From the IMG/VR virus record IMGVR_UViG_2703718828_000007: a stretch of DNA of 42,721 nucleotides. One strand, written 5' to 3'. Both the position numbers and the translations under genes were made by a program. The notes beneath the pieces are model-generated. The model did not search any database. It was given only the letters and a program-made list of their open reading frames with translations, and had not been told where the DNA came from. The DNA is from a virus (Duplodnaviria; Heunggongvirae; Uroviricota; Caudoviricetes). Of this stretch, positions 2,835 to 18,288 are shown piece by piece (the stretch's first letter is position 1; every line of letters starts with the position of its first letter).

Positions 2835-5800
2835 TTATGCCTGAGTACGCAGCGCTTCAAGGCGGCGCAGGTCGAAGTCGTTCAGTTCGTCGGTGTAGTC
2901 AGCAGTGATTGGCGCTGGCCATTCACCTGTGTCGAATCCGGTTGCGATATTGCGCATCGCTTTGCGGTACTCGAGCATACCCAGCTCCAGTAGTTCAGCG
3001 GATGCCTCGATGATGGCGATCCAGTGGTAGTTCTCGTCTTTGTTGACGAAAATCCAGAAGAACTGATCCAGCGCTGCGGTTTCGCAGTACATAGCCGCGC
3101 TCAGGTGATAATCACGTTCAATAATTTCCCGGTGTAGCCTGGCGCGCAGGCTTTCCTGCTTAACATTCCACATGCTGATGGTTTTCAGGTCTGCACCTAT
3201 ACGCACGCCATCCAGGTCGATCTCAAGGTCAGGGCGCACACGAACTTCCAAGCCCGTCTCCTCGTCAAAACCAAAGTAGCTCACCTCAACGGCTCGGCTA
3301 GGGTGGGTCAGCAGCATGCCGGCGGTCGGGTGTGCCAGAAGCGCTTTTTGAATATTCAGCGCGGTGCTCAGCTGCTGGCGGGTGACCAGCACTTTTCCTT
3401 CCGGGTTATCGCGCCAGGCATCCAGCAGTTCGTCGGCAAATACGGCATCTGGTTTGACTGCCTTTACGGCCTGGATCATGTCTGCTTTGGTACCGGACAC
3501 TTTCAGTGGTGCCGGTTTCTGTGCTTCCTGAGCCACAAGGTCAGGGTTGATGATTGCCAACTGCTCCAGCAGCGCGTCACGGCTGCCGCTGGTTTTAACC
3601 GGCGGCGGCAGGGTGGCGTTGTACTCTTTAATGCATGCCTTCATTGCCGTCGCCGTCTGCTTCTGGTCACCATCAATACGCTGGAAGTCAGCTGGCAGCG
3701 CCATATAGTTCTGTGCCGTTTCTTCCAGGTTAGCGCCAAGCGGAACCTGCGGCGGCAGGGTGGCGTTGTACTCTTCCAGTAACACCTTGATGTCGTCGGC
3801 AGACAGCAGCGCCGGCAGGCTGGCATTGTGCTCATCGATAAAGGCGCGCAGGGTCGCGGCCGTTGTGAATGCGCCTTCAGGGATCACCGGTTCAACGCTG
3901 AATTCTGCGTCCAGTAGTTCAGGCTGCAACGCCAGCGCATGCACCAAGTTGCCCATGTCCAGCACCGCTGAGCGCTCTTTGACGATGGTTTTCTCTACGT
4001 GGCGCGCATTGAAGTACATCAGCGAAACGCGCGCATCTTTCACCTGGGTTGAGCTGATGCCGTTGGCGGCGTGGTAAACCTCGTTTGGCAGCCCTTCATA
4101 GCGGCCTGGCTCGAAATAAGCGGGATAAACAACAGCTGGTTCGTCAGATTGCGCTTCTGGCTCGGTTTGTGCTGCAACTGGTTCGGTTTGGCTTACAGAA
4201 TCGCTATTTTTGGCGACAGAATCCGTATTCTGGTTTACATCGTCCTTCTGGCTGGTATCTGACTCTTCACCAGACTCCAGACTGCTTTCGCCTGGCTGTA
4301 CTTCATCACCAGCTTGTTTTTCATCACTGACAGTTTCTTGAACCTGCACATTGCTGGTGGTCTCCGTAGCCTTTTTCGTGCCATGAGTTGCTGAGTTCTG
4401 CAGCAAAGCCGTAACGTCGAATATTCCGTTGCCGACATTTTTAACCAGTTCTTGTTCGACTTTCTGCGGTTGTGCTGCCGCTTCCTCTGCGCGGCGGCGT
4501 GCTCCTTCTTCACGCACGCGTTGCAGGTTCTCTTCGTGAGTGCAGAAGGATTTGCGCGGAGACTCCTTACCTTCAGGTTGGGGAATTTCCTGTGCTGCGG
4601 GTTCAGCCTCATGCAACGGCAATAACTCGACCGCGGAATTGAACGCGGCTGTCATGGTCTGGTTAACAAATTCCAGGTGAGCGACAGGAGTTAAATGAAT
4701 ATTTTCCGGTGCGATACGTACCAGGTTAAAAATAGCCGTGCGGTTAACACCCAGAACGCCTGGCTGATTGCGCAGGATGTTGCTCCATGATTTCCATGGT
4801 TCTTCTTTTTTGGTCACGATTTCTTTAGCGCGACGAAGAATGCTGCCCGGGATCTCGAAGTGGTTGAAGTCCATAGGCAGAAGGGCACACGCAATCTCTA
4901 AATCGAGAGTGTCCAGTGTGTGGTGTGCGTCAGGTCCACGGTCAGTGACGTAACCGCCGTCGGCATTAGTGCCGGAATCAGTACGCTGCACACTACTGAT
5001 GCGATTACCGGCGGCCCATTCGCGAACGAGGATACCGCGGTCGATGTGATCTGTAGCGAACCACAATTTCAAAAACTGGATTAAGGTTGCGAGTTCAGGG
5101 ATTTTTCCATCGACAGGGAAGACTTTCTTAACGGCATTCACGACTTTATGAATATCGTGCTCAATGGCTTTTTTGAATGCTTCCACATTCTCAGCTGCCA
5201 GCAGCAGGTTCTGGACGTACGCGTCATCGGTGTCCATCTCAAGGCGGACAATCTCATTTTTCTGCCCTGCGTCGATGTGATAGAGATATTCACCATCACC
5301 GATGAACTGAGCCAGTACGCGCTGGCGGAATGGCAGGGTGGCAACAACGATCAGGTTCGGTTGCTGTGTCTGCTGGGATTGCTCTTCGGTATCGACTTCA
5401 CCATCAACGACGCCACCTTCTGCCCGGCCGTTCTCGTCGGTCTGGATACCGTCCTCAACAGTGAGATCTTGACCCGTTGTAACGTCAGCAGCGTTGCTGG
5501 TTTCAGTTTTGAGCAACTGCAACTTACCACTGCGCCAGTCTTCTACCAGTTGATTGCGGTCACCGGCATCGGTGTTCACCCAGTCAGACATGAATGCAGC
5601 GATCAATCTTGGTTCGTGCTCTTCGTCTGGTGTGAAAATGTCCTTAACCGCCCGAATCATTTTCCACTCAGCATTCAGGCTGAGTTTGGCGGTCGCGGGC
5701 ACATCGTTCCTTGCCACAAGCAGGCTATGGAGATATGTATTGCCTTCATCCAGTGACATTTCGCTGGCAGCCAACTGCTGCTCTTTAGTGACGTGGGTTT

Positions 5801-6224
5801 GGTATTTATCGTTCATCAGATGGACGGCAAAGCGGACCGCTGGAGTACGGTTTTCAACCGGGACAATTTCGGACGCAGTCGCATCTTCAACGATTACGGT
5901 CGGAGTAGGTGTGTAGGGGGCGTAAACGGAACCAGTAGACACACCAGCGGCTTTTGGCAGCCAGGTGCGCCCATCGTCCTGAAGCTCGTAGCGATCACAC
6001 CAGGTAAAATCAACTTCACCTTCTTTCGGCAGGCCGTCGACAACTGGGAAATCAGTGCGAATCGGTTTGGCGTAGTCCTTACCCCGACCTGTTTCGATAC
6101 CTGCATCTTCCAGCGCAACATCCAGCATCAGATTGGCGCGAGCCTCGGTTTTAGCAGTGAACCAGACCACTGCATCTTGCTTTCCGGATTTCTGAGTGGC
6201 TTTAACCACATTAAAGAATTCCAT
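2835..6224 (-). CDS. Large RecE-like exonuclease (exonuclease VIII family) with repeat-containing linker
   Basis: 1129-aa ORF, gene order exonuclease then annealing protein as in Rac recE-recT; C-terminal region has nuclease-like character; internal (E/N)(H/Y)NA(S/T)LP repeats. Confidence 0.55.
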   Translation of the reverse strand: MEFFNVVKATQKSGKQDAVVWFTAKTEARANLMLDVALEDAGIETGRGKDYAKPIRTDFPVVDGLPKEGEVDFTWCDRYELQDDGRTWLPKAAGVSTGSVYAPYTPTPTVIVEDATASEIVPVENRTPAVRFAVHLMNDKYQTHVTKEQQLAASEMSLDEGNTYLHSLLVARNDVPATAKLSLNAEWKMIRAVKDIFTPDEEHEPRLIAAFMSDWVNTDAGDRNQLVEDWRSGKLQLLKTETSNAADVTTGQDLTVEDGIQTDENGRAEGGVVDGEVDTEEQSQQTQQPNLIVVATLPFRQRVLAQFIGDGEYLYHIDAGQKNEIVRLEMDTDDAYVQNLLLAAENVEAFKKAIEHDIHKVVNAVKKVFPVDGKIPELATLIQFLKLWFATDHIDRGILVREWAAGNRISSVQRTDSGTNADGGYVTDRGPDAHHTLDTLDLEIACALLPMDFNHFEIPGSILRRAKEIVTKKEEPWKSWSNILRNQPGVLGVNRTAIFNLVRIAPENIHLTPVAHLEFVNQTMTAAFNSAVELLPLHEAEPAAQEIPQPEGKESPRKSFCTHEENLQRVREEGARRRAEEAAAQPQKVEQELVKNVGNGIFDVTALLQNSATHGTKKATETTSNVQVQETVSDEKQAGDEVQPGESSLESGEESDTSQKDDVNQNTDSVAKNSDSVSQTEPVAAQTEPEAQSDEPAVVYPAYFEPGRYEGLPNEVYHAANGISSTQVKDARVSLMYFNARHVEKTIVKERSAVLDMGNLVHALALQPELLDAEFSVEPVIPEGAFTTAATLRAFIDEHNASLPALLSADDIKVLLEEYNATLPPQVPLGANLEETAQNYMALPADFQRIDGDQKQTATAMKACIKEYNATLPPPVKTSGSRDALLEQLAIINPDLVAQEAQKPAPLKVSGTKADMIQAVKAVKPDAVFADELLDAWRDNPEGKVLVTRQQLSTALNIQKALLAHPTAGMLLTHPSRAVEVSYFGFDEETGLEVRVRPDLEIDLDGVRIGADLKTISMWNVKQESLRARLHREIIERDYHLSAAMYCETAALDQFFWIFVNKDENYHWIAIIEASAELLELGMLEYRKAMRNIATGFDTGEWPAPITADYTDELNDFDLRRLEALRTQA

Positions 6225-6363: not shown

Positions 6364-6525
6364 TTAGCCTTCGTGAGCCATCTGGTCGTGCGAAGCGCAA
6401 CGTTTGGAGCAATACTCTTTTTCTTTGCGCGCCAGCTGTGAGCCGTTGCGATAGAGAAGGGTGCTCTTGATTACTTCCTCCGTTTTAACCGGCTTGCCGC
6501 AATATCCGCATTTCTTGTCTAACAT
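6364..6525 (-). CDS. Small zinc-ribbon protein, YdaE-like (53 aa), not in ORF track
   Basis: Hand-translated MLDKKCGYCGKPVKTEEVIKSTLLYRNGSQLARKEKEYCSKRCASHDQMAHEG; CxxC...CxxxC; GGAGG RBS 6 nt upstream; Rac ydaE position. Confidence 0.45.
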   Translation of the reverse strand: MLDKKCGYCGKPVKTEEVIKSTLLYRNGSQLARKEKEYCSKRCASHDQMAHEG

Positions 6526-6536
6526 GACATCCTCCG

Positions 6537-6887
6537 CTAGTGGCTGAGTCCATGCCCCAGACCGTTCAGATAAACTTCAACCAGCAAATCCTTGGTGTAA
6601 GTCATTTCTACGCCGCGATGCAGATACAAACGTCCGCGAGCGTTAGCTGATGCCGTCCAGGTTGAGTCTTTGTGTTTGACGAGCATCCCCGGCTGAACTG
6701 CGCCGCGGTTTACTGTCTGTGTACCGTAGTGCTGATGAACCATGATGTTCTCCAGTTTTTCTGAGTGAACTTCGCTGGTGATGCCGCGGCGCTGATCTTC
6801 ACGGTTGAGCGTTTTAACTCTGCAATTCACCACCGCGAAGCTCACTCTGTGCTTTGCCCTTGTCGCCAGGCTGGCGGAACGTTTCAA
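6537..6887 (-). CDS. Hypothetical protein, first gene of leftward early operon (possibly Kil-like; true start may be internal)
   Basis: 116-aa ORF directly downstream of PL-like promoter. Confidence 0.35.
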   Translation of the reverse strand: MKRSASLATRAKHRVSFAVVNCRVKTLNREDQRRGITSEVHSEKLENIMVHQHYGTQTVNRGAVQPGMLVKHKDSTWTASANARGRLYLHRGVEMTYTKDLLVEVYLNGLGHGLSH

Positions 6888-6986
6888 ACCTACTGCGCGT
6901 TAATCTCACCACCTCATTCCGGTCTTCGTATGCCCCGGACAGCTTCTTCGTGGGCGTCCTGCTTTGGTGGTTGTGTTGATGGAGTA

Positions 6987-7015
6987 ATTAAACACAATGT
7001 TTATTTACGTGTCAA
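6987..7015 (-). promoter_or_regulatory. PL-like leftward early promoter with overlapping operator half-sites
   Basis: Minus strand reads TTGACA, 17-nt spacer, TTTAAT; near-copy of the PR element at 9047-9075; palindromic AACA..TGTT motifs overlap. Confidence 0.45.
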
Positions 7016-7127
7016 CATAATGAGTGTTTTTATATAAACAAAAAGTTTAGTTGGTTGCGCTCGTTGGCACGAGTAGTATGTTTTGTGGTCTATTTTGTGG
7101 TTATAAAAAAATCGATGAGGGTGAGTT

Positions 7128-7334
7128 ATGGATCGTGACGAACTGGAAGAAGACCGCGCAGCGTTTATTGCGGGGGAGATTGGTGGCGCAGTTGTCAGTC
7201 TGATAGCTAACGGGATTGTGATCAGCCGCGATGCGATTGTGGATAGTCTAGAGGCTAAGCGCAGGGTAGTGGGAAACGTCATTCACAAGTGGGTATTGCG
7301 GGATGCGGCTGCTATGGTGAGAAAAGGGCAATAA
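7128..7334 (+). CDS. Hypothetical small protein (68 aa)
   Basis: ORF with GAGGGTGAG RBS; convergent with the repressor operon; followed by hairpin. Confidence 0.4.
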   Translation: MDRDELEEDRAAFIAGEIGGAVVSLIANGIVISRDAIVDSLEAKRRVVGNVIHKWVLRDAAAMVRKGQ

Positions 7335-7336
7335 AA

Positions 7337-7358
7337 AACCCAGTTCGGTAACTGGGTT
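7337..7358. terminator. Bidirectional hairpin terminator between convergent genes
   Basis: Perfect 9-bp stem AACCCAGTT/AACTGGGTT with 4-nt loop, A-run upstream and T-rich tract downstream. Confidence 0.45.
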
Positions 7359-7364
7359 ATTGCT

Positions 7365-7823
7365 TTATTCAACAGATGATGGGGGGGTCGGTGCTTTCTT
7401 AAAGATCGACCACTGAGAAATGTAGGTCAGCAACCTTGAGCTTAACTCGAGTTCTTTTTGTAATATTTCGTCATAACGTTTTTTTGCTGCTTGCATGGTC
7501 GCATCACTAGCGTGATTGTCATCCATAATGATCTTTAGCCTTTTCTTTTCTCGGCTTGAGCATATTGTAAATAACAGACCTGTAAATGACATTCCACCAA
7601 AATCCTTTAACGTTTTGATTACAAAAAGAAGAATCAAAGACAGAAAAGGAACAGATCTGTAGGCCCAATCACGAAACTCACCGTCAGGAAAGAAGATAGG
7701 AATAGCATCTGTAGCATAACCACATATGAGGGAGACAATTAGAAAAGGTAGTCCATTTTTAGCTACATTTTTAACGTTATCGTTAGCCATGATTTTTTCC
7801 CGAGAACGATTTCGAGTCAACAT
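7365..7823 (-). CDS. Small membrane protein (152 aa), third gene of repressor-linked cassette; SieB-like role possible
   Basis: Hydrophobic segments LPFLIVSLICGYATDAIPIFF and VPFLSLILLFVIKTL; start may be the internal MANDN Met. Confidence 0.5.
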   Translation of the reverse strand: MLTRNRSREKIMANDNVKNVAKNGLPFLIVSLICGYATDAIPIFFPDGEFRDWAYRSVPFLSLILLFVIKTLKDFGGMSFTGLLFTICSSREKKRLKIIMDDNHASDATMQAAKKRYDEILQKELELSSRLLTYISQWSIFKKAPTPPSSVE

Positions 7824-8166
7824 GTAACTTTTGTGTTTTGACTACATAATACGCAAATCCAATCTTAACTAACCAATAAGCTACTGGTATGAGTGCTGCG
7901 TAAAGAGGGATATAGTACATAACCTTACCTCCTGTTAACCACACTATAACACCTAGCATCACTATTAGCGCGACAGAAAATGCTTTCAGCCCAACACAGC
8001 TATCAGGATGTGAAACACTGTTCCTTAGCAACAATATCCTGGATTCATCAAGTGTGTAAGGAATATCGCCAACATGATTTTCGATTTTTGGGAAGGTCTC
8101 AAATACTTCAACCCGATCAATCGAAATAATTGAGCTTGATTGATGATCTAAGCAAACTGCAGCCAC
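7783..8166 (-). CDS. Small membrane protein (127 aa), second gene of repressor-linked cassette
   Basis: Two predicted TM segments (AFSVALIVMLGVIVWL, IPLYAALIPVAYWLVKIGFAYYVV); 2-nt gap to upstream gene. Confidence 0.5.
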   Translation of the reverse strand: MAAVCLDHQSSSIISIDRVEVFETFPKIENHVGDIPYTLDESRILLLRNSVSHPDSCVGLKAFSVALIVMLGVIVWLTGGKVMYYIPLYAALIPVAYWLVKIGFAYYVVKTQKLHVDSKSFSGKNHG

Positions 8167-8168
8167 TG

Positions 8169-8504
8169 TTATCCCTCTCGAACCTTTAGTGATACTCGGT
8201 TAGCAGCAAATGTGGCAATGAAACCACATTCTACACATATAACAGGGAATGCCCATATACCTCGGCCAGCTGAATGAGGTAGAGGAAGGGTAATTATTGC
8301 AGGATAGTCTTGACTATCTTCTCGTGGAGGAACTCCCCAAAGCGTATGCTTACAAAGCGGACAGGCCATCTCGCCATGTTTTTCTTCGAGGCGTTGAAAA
8401 TAATCTCGAAATTCTTGTCTTGATATTGATAGCGTCAATGCTGTTGTATTGACACTTTCCTGACTTTTTTCTTCTTCAACCTGTTCGCCCATCTCAGCTC
8501 TCAA
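8169..8504 (-). CDS. Zinc-ribbon protein (111 aa), first gene downstream of repressor
   Basis: CPLC ... CVEC motif pair; co-oriented with repressor gene, 99-nt gap. Confidence 0.5.
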   Translation of the reverse strand: MRAEMGEQVEEEKSQESVNTTALTLSISRQEFRDYFQRLEEKHGEMACPLCKHTLWGVPPREDSQDYPAIITLPLPHSAGRGIWAFPVICVECGFIATFAANRVSLKVREG

Positions 8505-8603
8505 TATAATGATAATTAACTGGTAAGTGAATTTTGCATATCGTTAAGATGTATCCCATTGGTACAGAAACATCTGAGGGGTAAGTAGCTTTTAACTACC
8601 GTG

Positions 8604-8999
8604 CTACTCACCATCCCCCTTAATCCGCCGTCCCATGTACTTGGCGTACAGTTCATCGAGTTCTTTCAACCGTAGAGATACGATCCGCAACATGTTCTGT
8701 TGTTCTTCTTCGTTTGGGAGTTGATTATAGAGTTCCAACAGTCTCCGTTCGTCGTGTCTCAAACCGTCCTTAGCATCCACGTCCTGACCTAGAACCCACT
8801 CAAGACTTACGCCTAGCGCATCGGCAAGTTTTATTGCTGAGCTTTTTCCTATCGCTCCTCTGACAAACCAGTTGTTGACTGATTGTGCGCTCACACCACA
8901 GATTCTCGCTATATCCGCTTTGGATATGCGCTTCTTCTCGATGATTTCATTTAACCGCCGAACCTGCGGGTTATCTGTTTGGTGTGTGTTTTTTCTCAT
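8604..8999 (-). CDS. Prophage repressor, XRE-family HTH (cI/RacR-like)
   Basis: 131 aa; HTH segment ISKADIARICGVSAQSVNNW; divergent from Cro-like gene; start at transcription start of PRM-like promoter. Confidence 0.7.
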   Translation of the reverse strand: MRKNTHQTDNPQVRRLNEIIEKKRISKADIARICGVSAQSVNNWFVRGAIGKSSAIKLADALGVSLEWVLGQDVDAKDGLRHDERRLLELYNQLPNEEEQQNMLRIVSLRLKELDELYAKYMGRRIKGDGE

Positions 9000-9007
9000 A
9001 TATCAAG

Positions 9008-9035
9008 ATTCTAAACTAAAAGTTTATCGCCTCAA
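9008..9035 (-). promoter_or_regulatory. PRM-like repressor maintenance promoter
   Basis: Minus strand TTGAGG, 16-nt spacer, TAGAAT; predicted start coincides with repressor ATG (leaderless, as lambda PRM). Confidence 0.4.
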
Positions 9036-9046
9036 CATTCATAATG

Positions 9047-9075
9047 TTGACTTGAACATAAACATAATGTTTAAT
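9047..9075 (+). promoter_or_regulatory. PR-like rightward early promoter with overlapping operator palindromes
   Basis: TTGACT, 17-nt spacer, TTTAAT; inverted repeats TCAACATT-CAT-AATGTTGA (9032-9050) and AAACAT-A-ATGTTT (9060-9072) overlap -35 and -10. Confidence 0.45.
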
Positions 9076-9102
9076 TTGGTTCGTTATTACTTGGAGCCAA
9101 AT

Positions 9103-9336
9103 ATGAAAGCACTTGATAAAGCAATATGCATCGTAGGGGGTGCAACCCGTTTAGCAGAAAAGCTCAATGTATCCCCAATGACGGTCAGTCACTGGCGTCA
9201 CCGTGACAATGGATTCGTACCGGCTAACCGTGTCATTCCTATTTTCAATGCTACAGGTGTAACTCCACATGAGTTACGCCCTGATTTGTACCTCAACCCT
9301 ACGGATGGATTACCGGCTCAGGAAGCGAGGGCATAA
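9103..9336 (+). CDS. Cro/YdaS-like small HTH regulator
   Basis: 77 aa from internal Met of track ORF 8872-9336; GGAG RBS 6 nt upstream; HTH-like ATRLAEKLNVSPMTVSHW. Confidence 0.6.
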   Translation: MKALDKAICIVGGATRLAEKLNVSPMTVSHWRHRDNGFVPANRVIPIFNATGVTPHELRPDLYLNPTDGLPAQEARA

Positions 9337-9338
9337 CC

Positions 9339-9878
9339 ATGCAGTCACTATCACTTCATCAAAATAGCGGATATCAAACGGCTGCGATGATAAATCGCAA
9401 TCAACCTGTCTCGGTAGATAAACATGACCAGATCCGCGATGCCGTTCGTGCGTGGGCGGGTGTAGATGGTCAGGATGTCGTTTCTGCTCTGATCATCGAA
9501 GAGTACCAGGCTCAAGGGGGAGACGAGATCACTTTCCCTGATGACCTCAGCCGACAGCGTCAGAAGCTTTTCCGCTTTCTGGATAACCATTTCAACAGCG
9601 AACGGTACCGCGAAAACGTTCGCCAGCTGACTCCGGCAATCCTCGCTGTCCTGCCGATTGAATACCGCAATCGTCTGCTACCAGAAGACAACGTAATGGC
9701 TCGTCTGGCAAGGCTGGAGAAGGAAACCAGCGAAGCGAAGATTGCTGTCGCAATGGATGCGCCACGTCATCAGAAGCTGAAAGAGTTGAGCGAGGGGATC
9801 GTGGAGATGTATCGCGTTGACCCTGGGTTAACCGGTCCGTTGATGGAAATGGTGCAGATTATGCTGGGGGCTATATGA
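9339..9878 (+). CDS. YdaT-like protein (Rac-type early module)
   Basis: 179 aa; segments EEYQAQGGDE and TPAILAVLPIEYRNRLL resemble Rac YdaT as recalled; position after cro-like gene. Confidence 0.45.
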   Translation: MQSLSLHQNSGYQTAAMINRNQPVSVDKHDQIRDAVRAWAGVDGQDVVSALIIEEYQAQGGDEITFPDDLSRQRQKLFRFLDNHFNSERYRENVRQLTPAILAVLPIEYRNRLLPEDNVMARLARLEKETSEAKIAVAMDAPRHQKLKELSEGIVEMYRVDPGLTGPLMEMVQIMLGAI

Positions 9879-9929: not shown

Positions 9930-10871
9930 GTGCAAAAACAGTGCGTAATTGCGGAGAACAGTATGTCAAACACCGCTGAAATAATCAATTTCCCAAATAA
10001 AACCGAACAACCGGGAGGTCGTATGGCCGACCTGTCGAACGGGTATACCAAGGTCGCTAACGAGATCCAACAGCTTAAGCCTCGCCTGAGACTGTCAGGC
10101 CGGGAATGGCAATGTTTTGAGGCGGTGATCTGGCTTACCTACGGCTGGAACAAGAAACAGGACCGCGTGACAAATACGGTTATTGCCGAGCTTACGGGCC
10201 TGAGCGATACGCATGTATCGGACGCGCTTAAGTCTCTCGCAGAACGCAAAATCATCTTTTCACAGAAGCAGGGCATGATGAAAATCGTCGGTGTAAACAC
10301 TGACCTTTCAGCATGGATTTTAGACAAACCGGAAACGGGAAGAAAATTCCCGAAAACGGGAAAATCCTTCCCGAAATCAGGAATAACCTTCCCGAAAACG
10401 GTAGACACCCAATACAAGAACAAGAACAGTATTAAAAGATCTTCGTCCGAGAATTCTGACGAATCCTCTGACGCACGTCTGAAGAAATTTTTATCAACTC
10501 ATCCTGAAGCTGCGGTCTACACACCATCCGGTGCGAAGTGGGGCTCTGCTGAAGACCTCGAGACAGCTAAGTGGATTTCCTCCAGGGTGAAGCTGATTAA
10601 CCCAACCTGCAAAGCCCCGGACATGACCTCCTGGTCTAACACTGTTCGCCTGATGCGCCAGATAGACAACCGGTCGCACCAGGACATCTGCGCGCTGTAT
10701 GACTGGGCTAGCAAACACCACTTCTGGCAGACCAACATCCTGAGTCCCGAAAGCCTGCGTAAGCAGTGGGACAAGCTGACAATGCAGCGTAACGCCGGAG
10801 GTGAGCAGCGCGCTGTCAAGCCAGATCTGGACTTCAACAACACTGACTGGGCCTATGGGGTGATCCGATGA
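9930..10871 (+). CDS. Replication initiator, lambda O-like, with internal origin iterons
   Basis: 313 aa; four 21-bp-periodic repeats in mid-gene encoding FPKTG/FPKSG/FPKT; 4-nt overlap with P-like gene. Confidence 0.6.
   Translation: MQKQCVIAENSMSNTAEIINFPNKTEQPGGRMADLSNGYTKVANEIQQLKPRLRLSGREWQCFEAVIWLTYGWNKKQDRVTNTVIAELTGLSDTHVSDALKSLAERKIIFSQKQGMMKIVGVNTDLSAWILDKPETGRKFPKTGKSFPKSGITFPKTVDTQYKNKNSIKRSSSENSDESSDARLKKFLSTHPEAAVYTPSGAKWGSAEDLETAKWISSRVKLINPTCKAPDMTSWSNTVRLMRQIDNRSHQDICALYDWASKHHFWQTNILSPESLRKQWDKLTMQRNAGGEQRAVKPDLDFNNTDWAYGVIR
10326..10409 (+). repeat. Iteron array (candidate replication origin) inside O-like gene
   Basis: Four direct repeats of TTCCCGAAAACGGGAA-like units starting at about 10326, 10347, 10368, 10389, followed by an AT-rich tract. 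Confidence 0.5.
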
Positions 10872-12404: not shown

Positions 12405-12432
12405 AACCCGCTACGGCGGGTTTTCTTTTTTT
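12405..12432 (+). terminator. Rho-independent terminator
   Basis: CCCGC-TACG-GCGGG hairpin followed by T-run. Confidence 0.5.
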
Positions 12433-12494
12433 ACTACTGACAGAAAATTAACAATTTGTGCTCTTAAAGCGTTGATCATTTCCGCGCATAGGTA

Positions 12495-12514
12495 TACTGT
12501 ATAAAAACACAGTA
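12495..12514 (+). promoter_or_regulatory. LexA box (SOS operator) upstream of dinI-like gene
   Basis: TACTGTATAAAAACACAGTA matches CTGT-N8-ACAG consensus perfectly. Confidence 0.65.
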
Positions 12515-12532
12515 AATGCAATGGGGGCCATT

Positions 12533-12766
12533 ATGAAAGTTGAATTAACCATTGATCGCATGAAAGAACTTCCTAAAGGCGCAGTACCAGCACTGGAGAA
12601 AGAACTGCTTAAGCGCCTGAATGATCACTATGACAATTGCAGGCTCACAATCCGCCGTGCCGGGGCCGATGGGTTAAGTGTTTTTGGTGGTGACAAGGAC
12701 GATAAAAAGAAAATTGAATCAATCCTCCAGGATACCTGGGAAAGCGCTGACGACTGGTTTTATTAG
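12533..12766 (+). CDS. dinI: DinI-family DNA-damage-inducible protein
   Basis: MKVELTIDRMKELPKGAVPALEKEL ... ILQDTWESADDWFY closely resembles DinI (from memory); GGGGG RBS; LexA box upstream. Confidence 0.75.
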   Translation: MKVELTIDRMKELPKGAVPALEKELLKRLNDHYDNCRLTIRRAGADGLSVFGGDKDDKKKIESILQDTWESADDWFY

Positions 12767-12883
12767 AATTGCGCTTAAGGCTGGCGCGCATTTTTCAGAA
12801 TACCGCAATTTGCGTAACCCTCTGATGCTGCTGCCGACAATCTTTAATCGCGTCTGTTAGTCGCTCGAAGGGAGAACATAAAT

Positions 12884-13132
12884 GTGAGTGATTCAGCTTT
12901 GCAAACGTCAGAAGACAACTGGTATGACATTGTAAGAAGGTCTGACGGCTGCGTGGTGTTTAGCTTTCCTTCATCGGGCAGGCATCTAATTTATCGCGTC
13001 AATGGCATGGTTTCTATGCGGCCTTTGCTGGATGATGAAGAGGTCTTTACTCCTAATGGTTTTATGCAGTTTATTAACCGTCTCGGCTACCGGGTAACCC
13101 AACCTTCTGATAATATGAAATCAACGGTCTGA
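12884..13132 (+). CDS. Hypothetical protein (82 aa)
   Basis: ORF with GGGAG RBS; GTG start per track. Confidence 0.35.
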   Translation: MSDSALQTSEDNWYDIVRRSDGCVVFSFPSSGRHLIYRVNGMVSMRPLLDDEEVFTPNGFMQFINRLGYRVTQPSDNMKSTV

Positions 13133-13166
13133 ACAACCGTAACCTACTGCGCCACGGAGAGAAACC

Positions 13167-13766
13167 ATGGCGCACGAACTACAACTCATCAAGCAGTCAT
13201 CAGGAATCCTGATCCCCGCGACGCCGGAGACCAGCGATATTCTGCAATCAAAAATCAAACTCGGCGCCGTGCTGGTAGCCGAATTTCGCCAGGTGAGGAA
13301 TCCCGCATTCCATCGCCGTTTTTTTGCGCTCCTGAATCTCGGGTTTGAATACTGGGAACCTACTGGAGGGGCGATATCCAGCAATGAGCGTAAGCTCGTA
13401 AATGGTTATGCTAAATTCCTCGCGGCATTTGGTGGAAACGAAGGCGCACTGCTGGATGCTGCCGAGCAATATCTGGACCGCATCGCCGATAAGCGCGCCG
13501 GTAGCATCAGCATCTGCAAATCCTATGATGCTTATCGCGCCTGGGTGATCGTCGAGTCTGGTCACTATGACGCTATTCAGCTTCCTGACGGAACACTTCG
13601 CAAACATCCCCGCAGTATTGCCTTCGCTAACATGGACGAAACCGAGTTCCAGCAGCTGTACAAAGCCGCGCTCGATGTTCTGTGGCGATGGATACTCTCC
13701 CGATCATTTCGCAGTTGTGAAGAGGCAGAAAACGCCGCCGCCCAGCTGATGAGCTTTGCGGGGTGA
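13167..13766 (+). CDS. Nin-region phage protein (DUF1367/YbcN-like, tentative)
   Basis: 199 aa; sits upstream of YbcO-like and RusA as in DLP12 nin region. Confidence 0.4.
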   Translation: MAHELQLIKQSSGILIPATPETSDILQSKIKLGAVLVAEFRQVRNPAFHRRFFALLNLGFEYWEPTGGAISSNERKLVNGYAKFLAAFGGNEGALLDAAEQYLDRIADKRAGSISICKSYDAYRAWVIVESGHYDAIQLPDGTLRKHPRSIAFANMDETEFQQLYKAALDVLWRWILSRSFRSCEEAENAAAQLMSFAG

Positions 13767-17235: not shown

Positions 17236-18288
17236 ATGAAAAATACTGTAAATATAAACAGTGTCGAGTTAGTCAACGCTGATAGCCTGCAATACATCGC
17301 CACTCTCCCTGATAACTCCATTGACCTGATAGTCACGGATCCGCCGTACTTCAAAGTGAAACCCAACGGCTGGGACAATCAGTGGAAAGGGGATGAGGAT
17401 TATCTTCGCTGGCTTGATATGTGCCTCGCACAATTCTGGCGAGTGCTTAAACCTGCTGGCAGTCTTTATCTTTTCTCCGGTCACCGCCTGGCGGCAGACA
17501 TTGAGATCATGATGCGTGAGCGGTTCAACGTCCTGAACCACATCATCTGGGCTAAACCGTCGGGCCGCTGGAATGGCTGTAATAAAGAGAGTCTGCGCTC
17601 TTACTTCCCTGCAACAGAGCGCATCCTCTTCGCTGAGCATTACCAGGGGCCGTATAAACCAAAGAGCGACGGTTACGCGGAGAAGGGAAGCGAGCTGAAG
17701 CAGCATGTAATGACTCCCCTAATTTCTTATTTCCGGGATGCACGTGAAGCGCTTGGCATAACCTCAAAACAAATAGCCGATGCGACTGGAAAGAAGAACA
17801 TGGTGTCTCACTGGTTCAGCGGTAGCCAGTGGCAATTACCGAATGAATTAGACTACCGGAATCTTCAGTCCCTTTTCACGCAGGTAGCCATCGAAAAGCA
17901 CCAGAACGGCGAACTGGCAACACCACACCACCAGCTGGTGGCTATGTGGCATTCGTTAAATCGCAAGTATTCAGAGCTGCTCGAAGAGTACAAATCGCTT
18001 CGGCGGCATTTCTCTGTTTCCGTATCCGTTCCTTATACCGACGTCTGGACACATAAACCCGTTCAGTTTTACCCAGGTAAACACCCATGCGAAAAACCCG
18101 CTGACATGTTGCGGCAGATCATCAACGCCAGCAGTAAGCCTGGTGATGTGGTGGCTGATTTCTTTATGGGGTCCGGTTCGACCGTGAAAATCGCGCTGGA
18201 ACTTGGCCGCCAGGCTATCGGCGTTGAACTCGAGGAGGACAGGTTTAGCCAGACGGTGGAGGAAATAAGGGCGTTAACAGGGGAATAA
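17236..18288 (+). CDS. DNA methyltransferase, beta-class amino-MTase (N6-adenine or N4-cytosine), orphan
   Basis: Motif IV DPPY near N-terminus (LIVTDPPYF) and motif I FFMGSGST near C-terminus; no restriction endonuclease partner recognised. Confidence 0.8.
   Translation: MKNTVNINSVELVNADSLQYIATLPDNSIDLIVTDPPYFKVKPNGWDNQWKGDEDYLRWLDMCLAQFWRVLKPAGSLYLFSGHRLAADIEIMMRERFNVLNHIIWAKPSGRWNGCNKESLRSYFPATERILFAEHYQGPYKPKSDGYAEKGSELKQHVMTPLISYFRDAREALGITSKQIADATGKKNMVSHWFSGSQWQLPNELDYRNLQSLFTQVAIEKHQNGELATPHHQLVAMWHSLNRKYSELLEEYKSLRRHFSVSVSVPYTDVWTHKPVQFYPGKHPCEKPADMLRQIINASSKPGDVVADFFMGSGSTVKIALELGRQAIGVELEEDRFSQTVEEIRALTGE

Follow-up and report, generated by a model that had tools for sequence, protein, structure and literature searches.

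Four TAAAC-N5-GTTTA sites as the predicted OR and OL operators of a Gifsy-1/Rac-like lambdoid immunity region

Introduction

Where do the repressor operators lie in the immunity region of a Rac/Gifsy-like lambdoid prophage? The viral record IMGVR_UViG_2703718828_000007, a stretch of 42,721 nucleotides that we refer to as the window, carries a repressor gene between two mirrored promoter units, one rightward (PR) and one leftward (PL). The window is a Rac/Gifsy-like lambdoid prophage, and its positions 6500-9400 match chromosomal prophages of five complete Escherichia coli genomes at 99.8-100% identity and are partially shared with 78 genomes in the same comparison. An original prediction, made from the letters alone, had placed repressor operators at both promoter units and had equated them with AACAT..ATGTT palindromes. 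Here, we propose, with a probability of about 0.8, that the locus contains the right and left operator regions (OR and OL) of the immunity switch of a Gifsy-1/Rac-like lambdoid prophage, in which an orthologue of the Gifsy-1 repressor GfoR would act on four sites of the form TAAAC-N5-GTTTA.

Results

A 15-bp motif confined to the two promoter units

The motif TAAAC-N5-GTTTA was detected by repeat grouping and by a motif scan, and exactly four exact copies are present in the 42,721 bp, all of them at PL and PR, whereas Markov simulations gave an expectation of about 0.02. No site with one mismatch was found in the 42.7-kb window, and sites with two mismatches were scattered at about the level of chance seen in shuffles. 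Scored with a position weight matrix (PWM) built from the conserved sites, the four copies reached 18.5-23.9 bits, while the rest of the window never exceeded 3 bits. The start-to-start spacing is 46 bp between O1L and O3L and 47 bp between O3R and O1R, and OL and OR are 2,070 bp apart. The sites and the promoters that they overlap are as follows.

9059-9073: O1R, TAAACATAATGTTTA, predicted strong operator, spanning the spacer of PR and running 4 nt into its -10; PWM 23.4 bits
9012-9026: O3R, TAAACTAAAAGTTTA, predicted strong operator in the spacer of the PRM-like promoter, reaching 2 nt into its -10; PWM 18.5 bits
6989-7003: O1L, TAAACACAATGTTTA, predicted strong operator, spanning the spacer of PL and running 4 nt into its -10; PWM 23.9 bits
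7035-7049: O3L, TAAACAAAAAGTTTA, predicted strong operator; PWM 21.8 bits
9047-9075, plus strand: PR, TTGACT-17-TTTAAT (-35 at 9047-9052, -10 at 9070-9075), read directly in the sequence; predicted to drive the YdaS/Cro-like gene, the YdaT/CII-like gene and the replication genes
6987-7015, minus strand: PL, TTGACA-17-TTTAAT (-35 at 7015-7010, -10 at 6992-6987), read directly in the sequence, the inverted-repeat partner of PR, between the kil-like gene and an open reading frame (ORF) of 68 amino acids; predicted to drive the kil-like gene, ydaE, recE and recT
9008-9035, minus strand: PRM-like promoter, TTGAGG-16-TAGAAT (read 9035..9008), ahead of the repressor gene; listed by a generic promoter scan

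The palindromes to which the original prediction had pointed are all present (TCAACATTCATAATGTTGA at 9032-9050, AAACATAATGTTT at 9060-9072 and AAACACAATGTTT at 6990-7002). However, AACAT-Nx-ATGTT occurs only at OR, and the element common to both regions is TAAAC-N5-GTTTA; the 13-bp palindromes AAACATAATGTTT and AAACACAATGTTT are sub-strings of the two O1 sites. The idea that both regions carry operators was therefore right in kind, as the site statistics and the comparison below indicate, but its motif was wrong and the distal sites O3R and O3L had been missed. Taken together, the site statistics and the comparison strongly support the assignment of the two regions as OL/PL and OR/PR of an immunity region of lambdoid type.

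Conservation of the sites in related prophages

We compared the region with the corresponding loci of 13 prophages from at least seven genera (Citrobacter, Raoultella, Siccibacter, Silvania, Enterobacter, Kluyvera and Leclercia) and with three Salmonella loci, including Gifsy-1 of S. Typhimurium 14028; footprint columns were taken from 15 non-redundant OR and 15 OL sequences. The genes on either side of OR are the following.

8604-8999, minus strand: repressor gene, 131 amino acids, with the Pfam families HTH_3 and Phage_CI_repr; GfoR orthologue on sequence grounds (see below)
9000-9102: intergenic region of 103 bp between the repressor gene and the YdaS-family gene
9103-9336, plus strand: YdaS-family Cro-like gene, 77 amino acids (Pfam YdaS_toxin, 7.6e-16; a weak match to P22_Cro)
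9339-9878, plus strand: YdaT-family CII-like gene, 179 amino acids (Pfam YdaT_toxin, 1.9e-25; phrog_163, 'CII-like transcriptional activator', 1e-57; PDB entry 8bt1, YdaT, E 5.9e-6)

Repressor homologues number in the hundreds in Enterobacteriaceae. Those of the 13 prophage loci are 74-99% identical to the repressor of the window, and the recognition helix QSVNNWF is invariant in 13 aligned homologues with 72-95% identity. Each related locus holds two, and only two, exact TAAAC-N5-GTTTA sites in the interval from the repressor gene to the cro-like gene, spaced 47 bp, and a second pair, 46 bp apart, downstream of the repressor operon at 0.7-2.9 kb from OR. This OL pair is exact except in L013, which has one mismatch, and in L014, in which O3L is degraded, so that O3L is exact in 13 of the 15 loci. 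The ten arm positions of O1R, O3R and O1L are 100% invariant in the 15 non-redundant sequences, compared to majority fractions of 0.48-0.70 in the adjacent spacers and 0.54-0.59 beyond the promoters; flanking bases and the distance between OL and OR also vary among the relatives. The centre of O1 reads ACAAAATGT, ACTTTGTGT, ACAATATGT and so on in related loci, while TAAAC and GTTTA are unchanged. In addition, the YdaS-family Cro-like gene is conserved along with the repressor and the operators in 13 loci.

Three predicted promoters around the sites

The mirrored arrangement of PR and PL that had been described was confirmed, with both units at the expected positions. In a repeat search, they form the longest inverted repeat of positions 6800-9300, with arms of 43 nt (6986-7028 and 9034-9076) that are 81% complementary; 35 of the 43 positions match, whereas 60 first-order Markov simulations of this 2.5-kb stretch averaged 25.9 (sd 1.0) and never exceeded 29. 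PR and PL are both missing from the output of a generic promoter scan, since TTTAAT departs from the -10 consensus at its second position, with T in place of A. Since the region holds 8 promoter-like matches where 5.5 are expected, which is no enrichment, the hexamers alone carry little weight, and the weight rests on the repeat and its conservation. Three parts of PR never change in the 15 loci, namely TTGAC in the -35, the GTTTA arm of the operator and the closing AT of TTTAAT, and PL is conserved likewise. This AT follows O1 in 30 of 30 cases, whereas the base that follows O3, on the side without the promoter, varies.

A divergent promoter starting transcription at the repressor ATG had also been anticipated, and the PRM-like promoter is in keeping with this. 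Its -10, TAGAAT, overlaps O3R by 2 nt and is kept in 14 of the 15 loci. The distance from the end of TAGAAT to the repressor ATG is 8 nt here and in the nearest relatives, compared to 6 nt in GfoR-type loci, where the ATG thus begins at the seventh base after the -10. A Shine-Dalgarno sequence is absent from the repressor start. These features fit a repressor mRNA that would lack a leader altogether or carry one no longer than about 4 nt. Leaderless repressor mRNAs have been reported for paaR2 of CP-933P, by 5' RACE (rapid amplification of cDNA ends; PMC8630535), and for racR, by primer extension (PMC9638921).

Half-sites change together with the recognition helix

More distant, heteroimmune relatives keep the architecture: two OR sites lie 47-49 bp apart, the distal one abutting the repressor ATG, and in four of five relatives at least one matching site is found downstream of the repressor gene. 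A different recognition helix goes with different half-sites in these phages.

SW-37 (L020): helix TPQSVNGWFKKG; four sites, TAAGC/TAAGT-N5-RCTTA
PHB10 (L022): helix TPQAVNGWFKKG; TAAAC-N5-ATTTA
ST846-OXA48phi9.2 (L021): helix SKQAVSGWFKTG; TAAAG-N5-ATTTA
Arsenophonus locus: helix QSVNSWF; TAAAC-N5-GTTTA / GATTA

The C-terminal residues, about 55 in number (...DGLKPDEQRLLELYRQLPEEEQQNMLRI...KELDELY.KYM...), are nearly identical between the window repressor and those of SW-37, ST846-OXA48phi9.2 and PHB10, while the helix-turn-helix (HTH) domains and the operators diverge. Since the C-terminus is almost identical while helices and half-sites differ, specificity has diverged on a constant C-terminal module. 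The co-variation of helix and half-site is the pattern expected of immunity operators and, as far as sequence comparison goes, argues against promoter elements as the sole reason for the conservation. A divergent HTH domain on a shared C-terminus suggests domain shuffling, and the shared C-terminus could account for the action of Gifsy antirepressors on heteroimmune repressors (PMC3121763). The Cro-like proteins have an invariant C-terminal GVTPHELRPDLYPNP motif of their own across immunity types.

Two further phages, mEp237 (L017, 3514-4393) and SEN34 (L018, 3590-4402), each carry two tandem paralogous small repressor genes, and sites of the form TAAAG-N5-WTTTA lie beside the first of these. 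In mEp237, the second repressor (gene 038) shares 72.5% identity and the QSVNNWF helix with that of the window. It looks like an orphan repressor, which might provide immunity against GfoR-type phages.

The co-variation also bears on which protein binds the sites. TAAAC-N5-GTTTA could be bound only by YdaS, the Cro-like protein, or only by YdaT, with the repressor recognizing another element such as the TCA..GTTGAC between the strong sites. Both YdaS and YdaT are conserved together with the sites, the middle element is conserved too, and comparing sequences does not by itself tell which protein binds which site. We nevertheless regard such a division as improbable. Repressor and Cro share operators in the switches of lambda, 434 and P22. 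Changes of the repressor helix track changes of the half-sites in heteroimmune relatives whose C-terminal domain is near-identical. In CP-933P, repressor and Cro share operators as well (PMC8630535), and the YdaT site is at the 3' end of ydaS, outside OR (PMC9986795).

The 19-bp palindrome and a candidate middle site

The 19-bp palindrome TCAACATT-CAT-AATGTTGA could be the main repressor site, with the 13-bp palindromes AAACATAATGTTT and AAACACAATGTTT as the others. The AACAT palindromes do exist, the 13-bp ones lie inside the O1 sites, and the 19-bp element is situated between PR and the PRM-like promoter, where lambda has OR2. Its arms at OR, TCAAC and GTTGA, coincide with back-to-back -35 boxes, GTTGA belonging to the -35 of PR (TTGACT) and TCAAC being the complement of the PRM-like -35 (TTGAGG). 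In relatives, the element reads CTCAATATTCAAAATGTTGAC or CTCAACACTCAAAAAGTTGAC, whose inside is not palindromic. At OL, which has no PRM, the distal arm is missing in all 15 loci, and the sequence reads AAAAACACTCATTATGTTGAC. Furthermore, the half-sites of the 19-bp element are separated by N9 instead of the N5 found elsewhere, a difference of 4 bp that would be awkward for a single dimeric protein, and AACAT-Nx-ATGTT is confined to OR, where the O1 centre varies among relatives and TAAAC/GTTTA never does. These results do not bear out the 19-bp palindrome as a conserved operator, and operators built on AACAT..ATGTT are quite improbable. By analogy to TTGATT-N6-AATCAA, the palindrome was also considered as a site for the CII-like YdaT, and was rejected on account of the location of the YdaT site in CP-933P and the lack of conservation.

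What OR and OL do have in common at this position is xAYTCA-W4-GTTGAC, or, written as a 15-bp site, xAYTC-W5-GTTGA, of which TCA and GTTGAC are conserved across loci.

9036-9050: O2R, CATTCATAATGTTGA, candidate weak middle site within 9032-9050, abutting the PRM-like -35 and overlapping the PR -35
7012-7026: O2L, TCAACATAATGAGTG, candidate weak middle site overlapping the PL -35

The centre of O2R is 23-24 bp from those of O1R and O3R, and the centre of O2L is 23 bp from those of O1L and O3L. The middle site is the third-best PWM position in most OR and OL sequences and is among the best four in all 14 OR sequences. As a bona fide third operator it was rejected, its core matches largely coinciding with the -35 box; it is kept as a candidate weak site, and this assignment is uncertain.

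In the cro-like gene, an inverted repeat with 10-bp arms, GGTGTAACTC-CACAT-GAGTTACGCC (9256-9280), was flagged by a terminator scan at the 3' end, a position equivalent to that of the YdaT operator of CP-933P. It is not supported as a YdaT site or as a terminator, because it lies inside the conserved coding stretch GVTPHELRP and its synonymous positions are not kept in other loci.

Finally, it is very improbable that the conserved blocks are promoter elements only (-10, -35 and UP-like A/T tracts) duplicated through a shared ancestry of PL and PR: O1 overlaps the -10 of PR and PL, O3R overlaps the PRM-like -10 and the regions are A/T-rich, but O3L is kept without an associated conserved promoter, palindromic arms of 5+5 invariant positions around 5 varying inner bp are the signature of a dimeric binding site and not of a promoter spacer, and the arms change together with the HTH in heteroimmune phages.

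The repressor as a GfoR orthologue and its likely route of induction

P0105, a homologue from Salmonella, shares 72-74% identity with the window repressor and has its length of 131 amino acids and its recognition helix. The published gfoR lambda-Red primers, 5' (ATGAAAGAAAAAACTCATCAG) and 3' (...GAAGGGAAGGATTCGAACGCGCGAAGAT), match the P0105 locus exactly at the start and the end of the gene, which identifies P0105 as GfoR, the Gifsy-1 repressor of strain ATCC 14028. As described (PMC3121763), the P0105 gene lies in the immunity region and is followed by a parA-like gene. By sequence, the window repressor is thus classed as a GfoR orthologue.

Pfam searches of the repressor returned HTH families only and no S24 peptidase (self-cleavage) domain. 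An AlphaFold2 model (predicted local distance difference test score, pLDDT, 86) shows a five-helix HTH domain followed by a C-terminal helical hairpin of 45 residues. The N-terminal domain of the model superposes on those of the P22 c2 and 434 repressors at 2.2-2.5 Å, with weak E-values. The repressor sequence had no match in the PDB, and the Foldseek matches were generic HTH domains with E > 1e-3.

GfoR is not cleaved upon induction but is inactivated by GfoA, the product of the dinI-gfoA-irsA operon, which is under LexA control and lies outside the immunity region (Lemire et al. 2011, PMC3121763). In the same study, distinct operator specificities of GfoR and GfhR were inferred from heteroimmunity, and an electrophoretic mobility shift assay (EMSA) was shown only for GtgR (PMC3121763). 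A module of this kind is present in the window at 12405-13766.

within 12405-13766: terminator-like hairpin, ahead of the LexA box
12495-12514: LexA box, TACTGTATAAAAACACAGTA
12533-12766, plus strand: dinI homologue (phrog_189, 1e-26)
12884-13132, plus strand: GfoA-like ORF, 82 amino acids, GTG start (phrog_340, function listed as unknown)
13167-13766: DUF1367 gene, after the GfoA-like ORF

The ends of the GfoA-like ORF resemble the peptides encoded by the gfoA primers (MSDSALQT vs MSNSALQK at the start, RLGYRVTQPSD vs RLGYRVTPPSD at the end), and the order of terminator, LexA box, dinI homologue, small ORF with GTG start and DUF1367 gene matches the Gifsy order (PMC3121763) at the sequence level. 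Because the repressor has no S24 domain while a LexA box, a dinI homologue and a GfoA-like gene are present, induction of the prophage probably relies on a GfoA-like antirepressor under LexA control, whose gene lies about 3.5 kb further right, and not on repressor self-cleavage. A second exact CTGT-N8-ACAG match, CTGTAAATATAAACAG, was seen at 17246-17261, which makes two in the window where 0.54 are expected.

Genes around the immunity region

The gene order was taken from the annotation of one near-identical E. coli prophage together with ORF and family searches.

2835-6224, minus strand: recE, preceded in gene order by recT and followed by ydaE and then the kil-like gene
7128-7334, plus strand: ORF of 68 amino acids (phrog_3975), oriented opposite to the three small ORFs
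7337-7358: bidirectional terminator separating the 68-amino-acid ORF from the three small ORFs
7365-8504, minus strand: three small ORFs between the repressor gene and OL
after the YdaT-family gene: replication O and P genes

For the three small ORFs, no Pfam family above threshold was found; a sub-threshold DUF7156 match and one partial PHROG match, of unknown function, were returned. The slot between the repressor gene and OL (7128-8504 here) varies from about 0.2 to 2.5 kb in length across related prophages, and it looks like a cargo (moron) site with expression together with the repressor. On the other side of OR, the replication O-like gene is an open frame of 313 amino acids with a GTG start in the window (9930-10871), whereas it is a pseudogene with an internal stop in the 99.8%-identical prophage of E. 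coli EC17CM13 (L001, 9464-10372).

About 235 nt (6744-6980) separate the predicted PL start site from the annotated start codon of the kil-like gene (ATG at 6743), and a block of the CACCAAGACGCAC type, conserved among relatives, lies directly downstream of PL. This stretch had no Rfam match, and a scan of the whole window found no Rfam family at its threshold. The stretch could contain a leader, a nut-like element or a small ORF.

Discussion

The positions and statistics of the sites, their conservation and co-variation, the GfoR orthology and the antirepressor module can be combined into a model, in which we infer the assignment of proteins to sites, the order of filling, looping, the start sites and antirepression from the paradigms of lambda, 434, CP-933P and Gifsy. 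In this model, a repressor dimer most likely binds each 15-bp TAAAC-N5-GTTTA site, the half-site centres being 10 bp, one helical turn, apart. With O1R and O1L filled, PR and PL, and hence the early lytic operons, would be off. Filling of O3R would turn PRM off, whether by the repressor, which would then regulate itself negatively, or by the YdaS-family Cro. The invariant arms would provide the specificity. O1 and O3 show systematic sequence differences, with TAAACA...TGTTTA at O1 and TAAAC(T/C)... at O3R, and the central N5 and this sixth base probably set the order in which repressor and Cro fill the sites, as in 434. The degenerate middle site may be filled cooperatively, which is uncertain, and OL and OR may cooperate by looping. 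Upon SOS induction, cleavage of LexA would release the GfoA-like antirepressor, which would strip the repressor from the DNA.

Several points weigh against this reading. O3 is conserved as well as O1, so simple autorepression fits as well as an ordered switch like that of lambda, and repressor and Cro both co-vary with the sites, which makes binding by one or the other inseparable in these data. The middle site matches 6 of 10 core positions, and its conservation is explicable by the -35 boxes. The -10 of PR and PL lacks the highly conserved A at position 2, and the actual -10 or start site could differ, or PR and PL could be intrinsically weak. The 8.4-kb mEp237 locus contains no TAAAC-N5-GTTTA site despite gene 038; a homologous protein thus does not always imply cognate operators nearby. 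In the literature searched, we found no binding or transcript data for this immunity type and no published GfoR operator sequence, and two Gifsy-1 papers (Owen et al. 2020, PMC7067206, and PMC9879122) contained nothing relevant on its start sites or operators.

We also consider, as a rather unlikely possibility, a GfoR-family switch built differently from that of lambda. Its promoters would be near-symmetric and back to back, with one strong 15-bp operator in each spacer. The sites would otherwise be identical, and its direction would depend solely on their non-contacted N5 and sixth base, together with a degenerate middle site at which PR is blocked and the PRM -35 is touched. The DNA-binding domain would be freely swapped onto a near-invariant C-terminal domain that serves as a common antirepressor target, and orphan repressors such as those of mEp237 and SEN34 would act as cross-immunity genes against competing phages.

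The element is of an ordinary, well-known kind, and this member of it has not yet been described. The analysis provides a testable predicted operator map for the GfoR immunity group, with four strong sites, a motif, the spacing and three promoters. Gifsy/Rac-like prophages are widespread in Escherichia, Salmonella, Klebsiella, Citrobacter and Enterobacter, and those of Salmonella harbour virulence genes and rely on antirepressors for induction. The map could help binding experiments, the prediction of homoimmunity between prophages and the engineering of switches. The lambda paradigm is confirmed rather than challenged, and the modular evolution of N- and C-terminal domains and the orphan second repressors are the more interesting leads.

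Comparison with known systems

Like lambda, the window has divergent repressor and cro genes, repeated palindromic operators over PR and PRM and a second set some 2 kb away at PL; should the middle site prove genuine, neighbouring site centres lie 23-24 bp apart, and the repressor mRNA is predicted to be leaderless or nearly so. The modelled fold of the N-terminal domain resembles those of lambda, 434 and P22 c2, and conserved outer arms around a variable centre are also found in 434. In contrast to lambda, the repressor has no S24 self-cleavage domain, each region has two strong sites and at most one weak site instead of three comparable ones, and O1 and O3 lie inside promoter spacers arranged almost symmetrically back to back. 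The sites are 15 bp long, compared to 17 bp in lambda and 14 bp in 434.

Rac of E. coli K-12 shares the backbone of RecE/RecT, the kil-like gene, YdaE and the YdaS and YdaT families. It has three operators, (T/A)TAGGC-n3-GCCTA(T/A), in the racR-ydaS intergenic region and a leaderless racR promoter (PMC9638921, PMC5700373). A motif comparison with this region had been suggested as a check, and TAGGC-N3-GCCTA gave no match in the window with up to one mismatch. The shared backbone thus carries a different immunity specificity, for which Gifsy-1 GfoR is the reference system.

Among switches with YdaS and YdaT, that of CP-933P (E. coli O157:H7) has been studied best. Its locus, which we rebuilt from published primers, has a similarly short divergent intergenic region (97 bp there, 103 bp in the window), a small repressor that lacks a cleavage domain, a Cro of the YdaS family and a CII of the YdaT family. 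Its PL and PR have the same hexamers, and the inverted repeats over PRM and PR are alternately well conserved and degenerate, with both PaaR2 and YdaS giving protection (PMC8630535). However, its repeat consensus is GTTTAGTAA / CACTAAAC (PMC8630535) and not TAAAC-N5-GTTTA, its YdaS protein is not alignable to that of the window (E 0.42), and a paaA2-parE2 toxin-antitoxin pair, absent from the window, lies downstream of the repressor gene. Homology between the window repressor and PaaR2 was considered and rejected, as none was detected by BLASTP against the PaaR2 gene of the O157:H7 genome (E = 3.5).

Gifsy-1 of strain 14028 differs from the window in its host, which is Salmonella instead of an Escherichia/Citrobacter type, in the gene at the CII position, which gives a weak Phage_CII match there and belongs to the YdaT family in the window, and in the cargo between the repressor gene and OL, which consists of the parA-like genes STM14_3218-3220 there and of the three small ORFs here. 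STM14_3218-3220 are needed for RtcR activation (PMC9879122). Gifsy-1 has RecE/RecT, the kil-like gene and YdaE in the same positions as the window, and it has the same two plus two TAAAC-N5-GTTTA sites, the same promoters and the same leaderless-type context of the repressor ATG.

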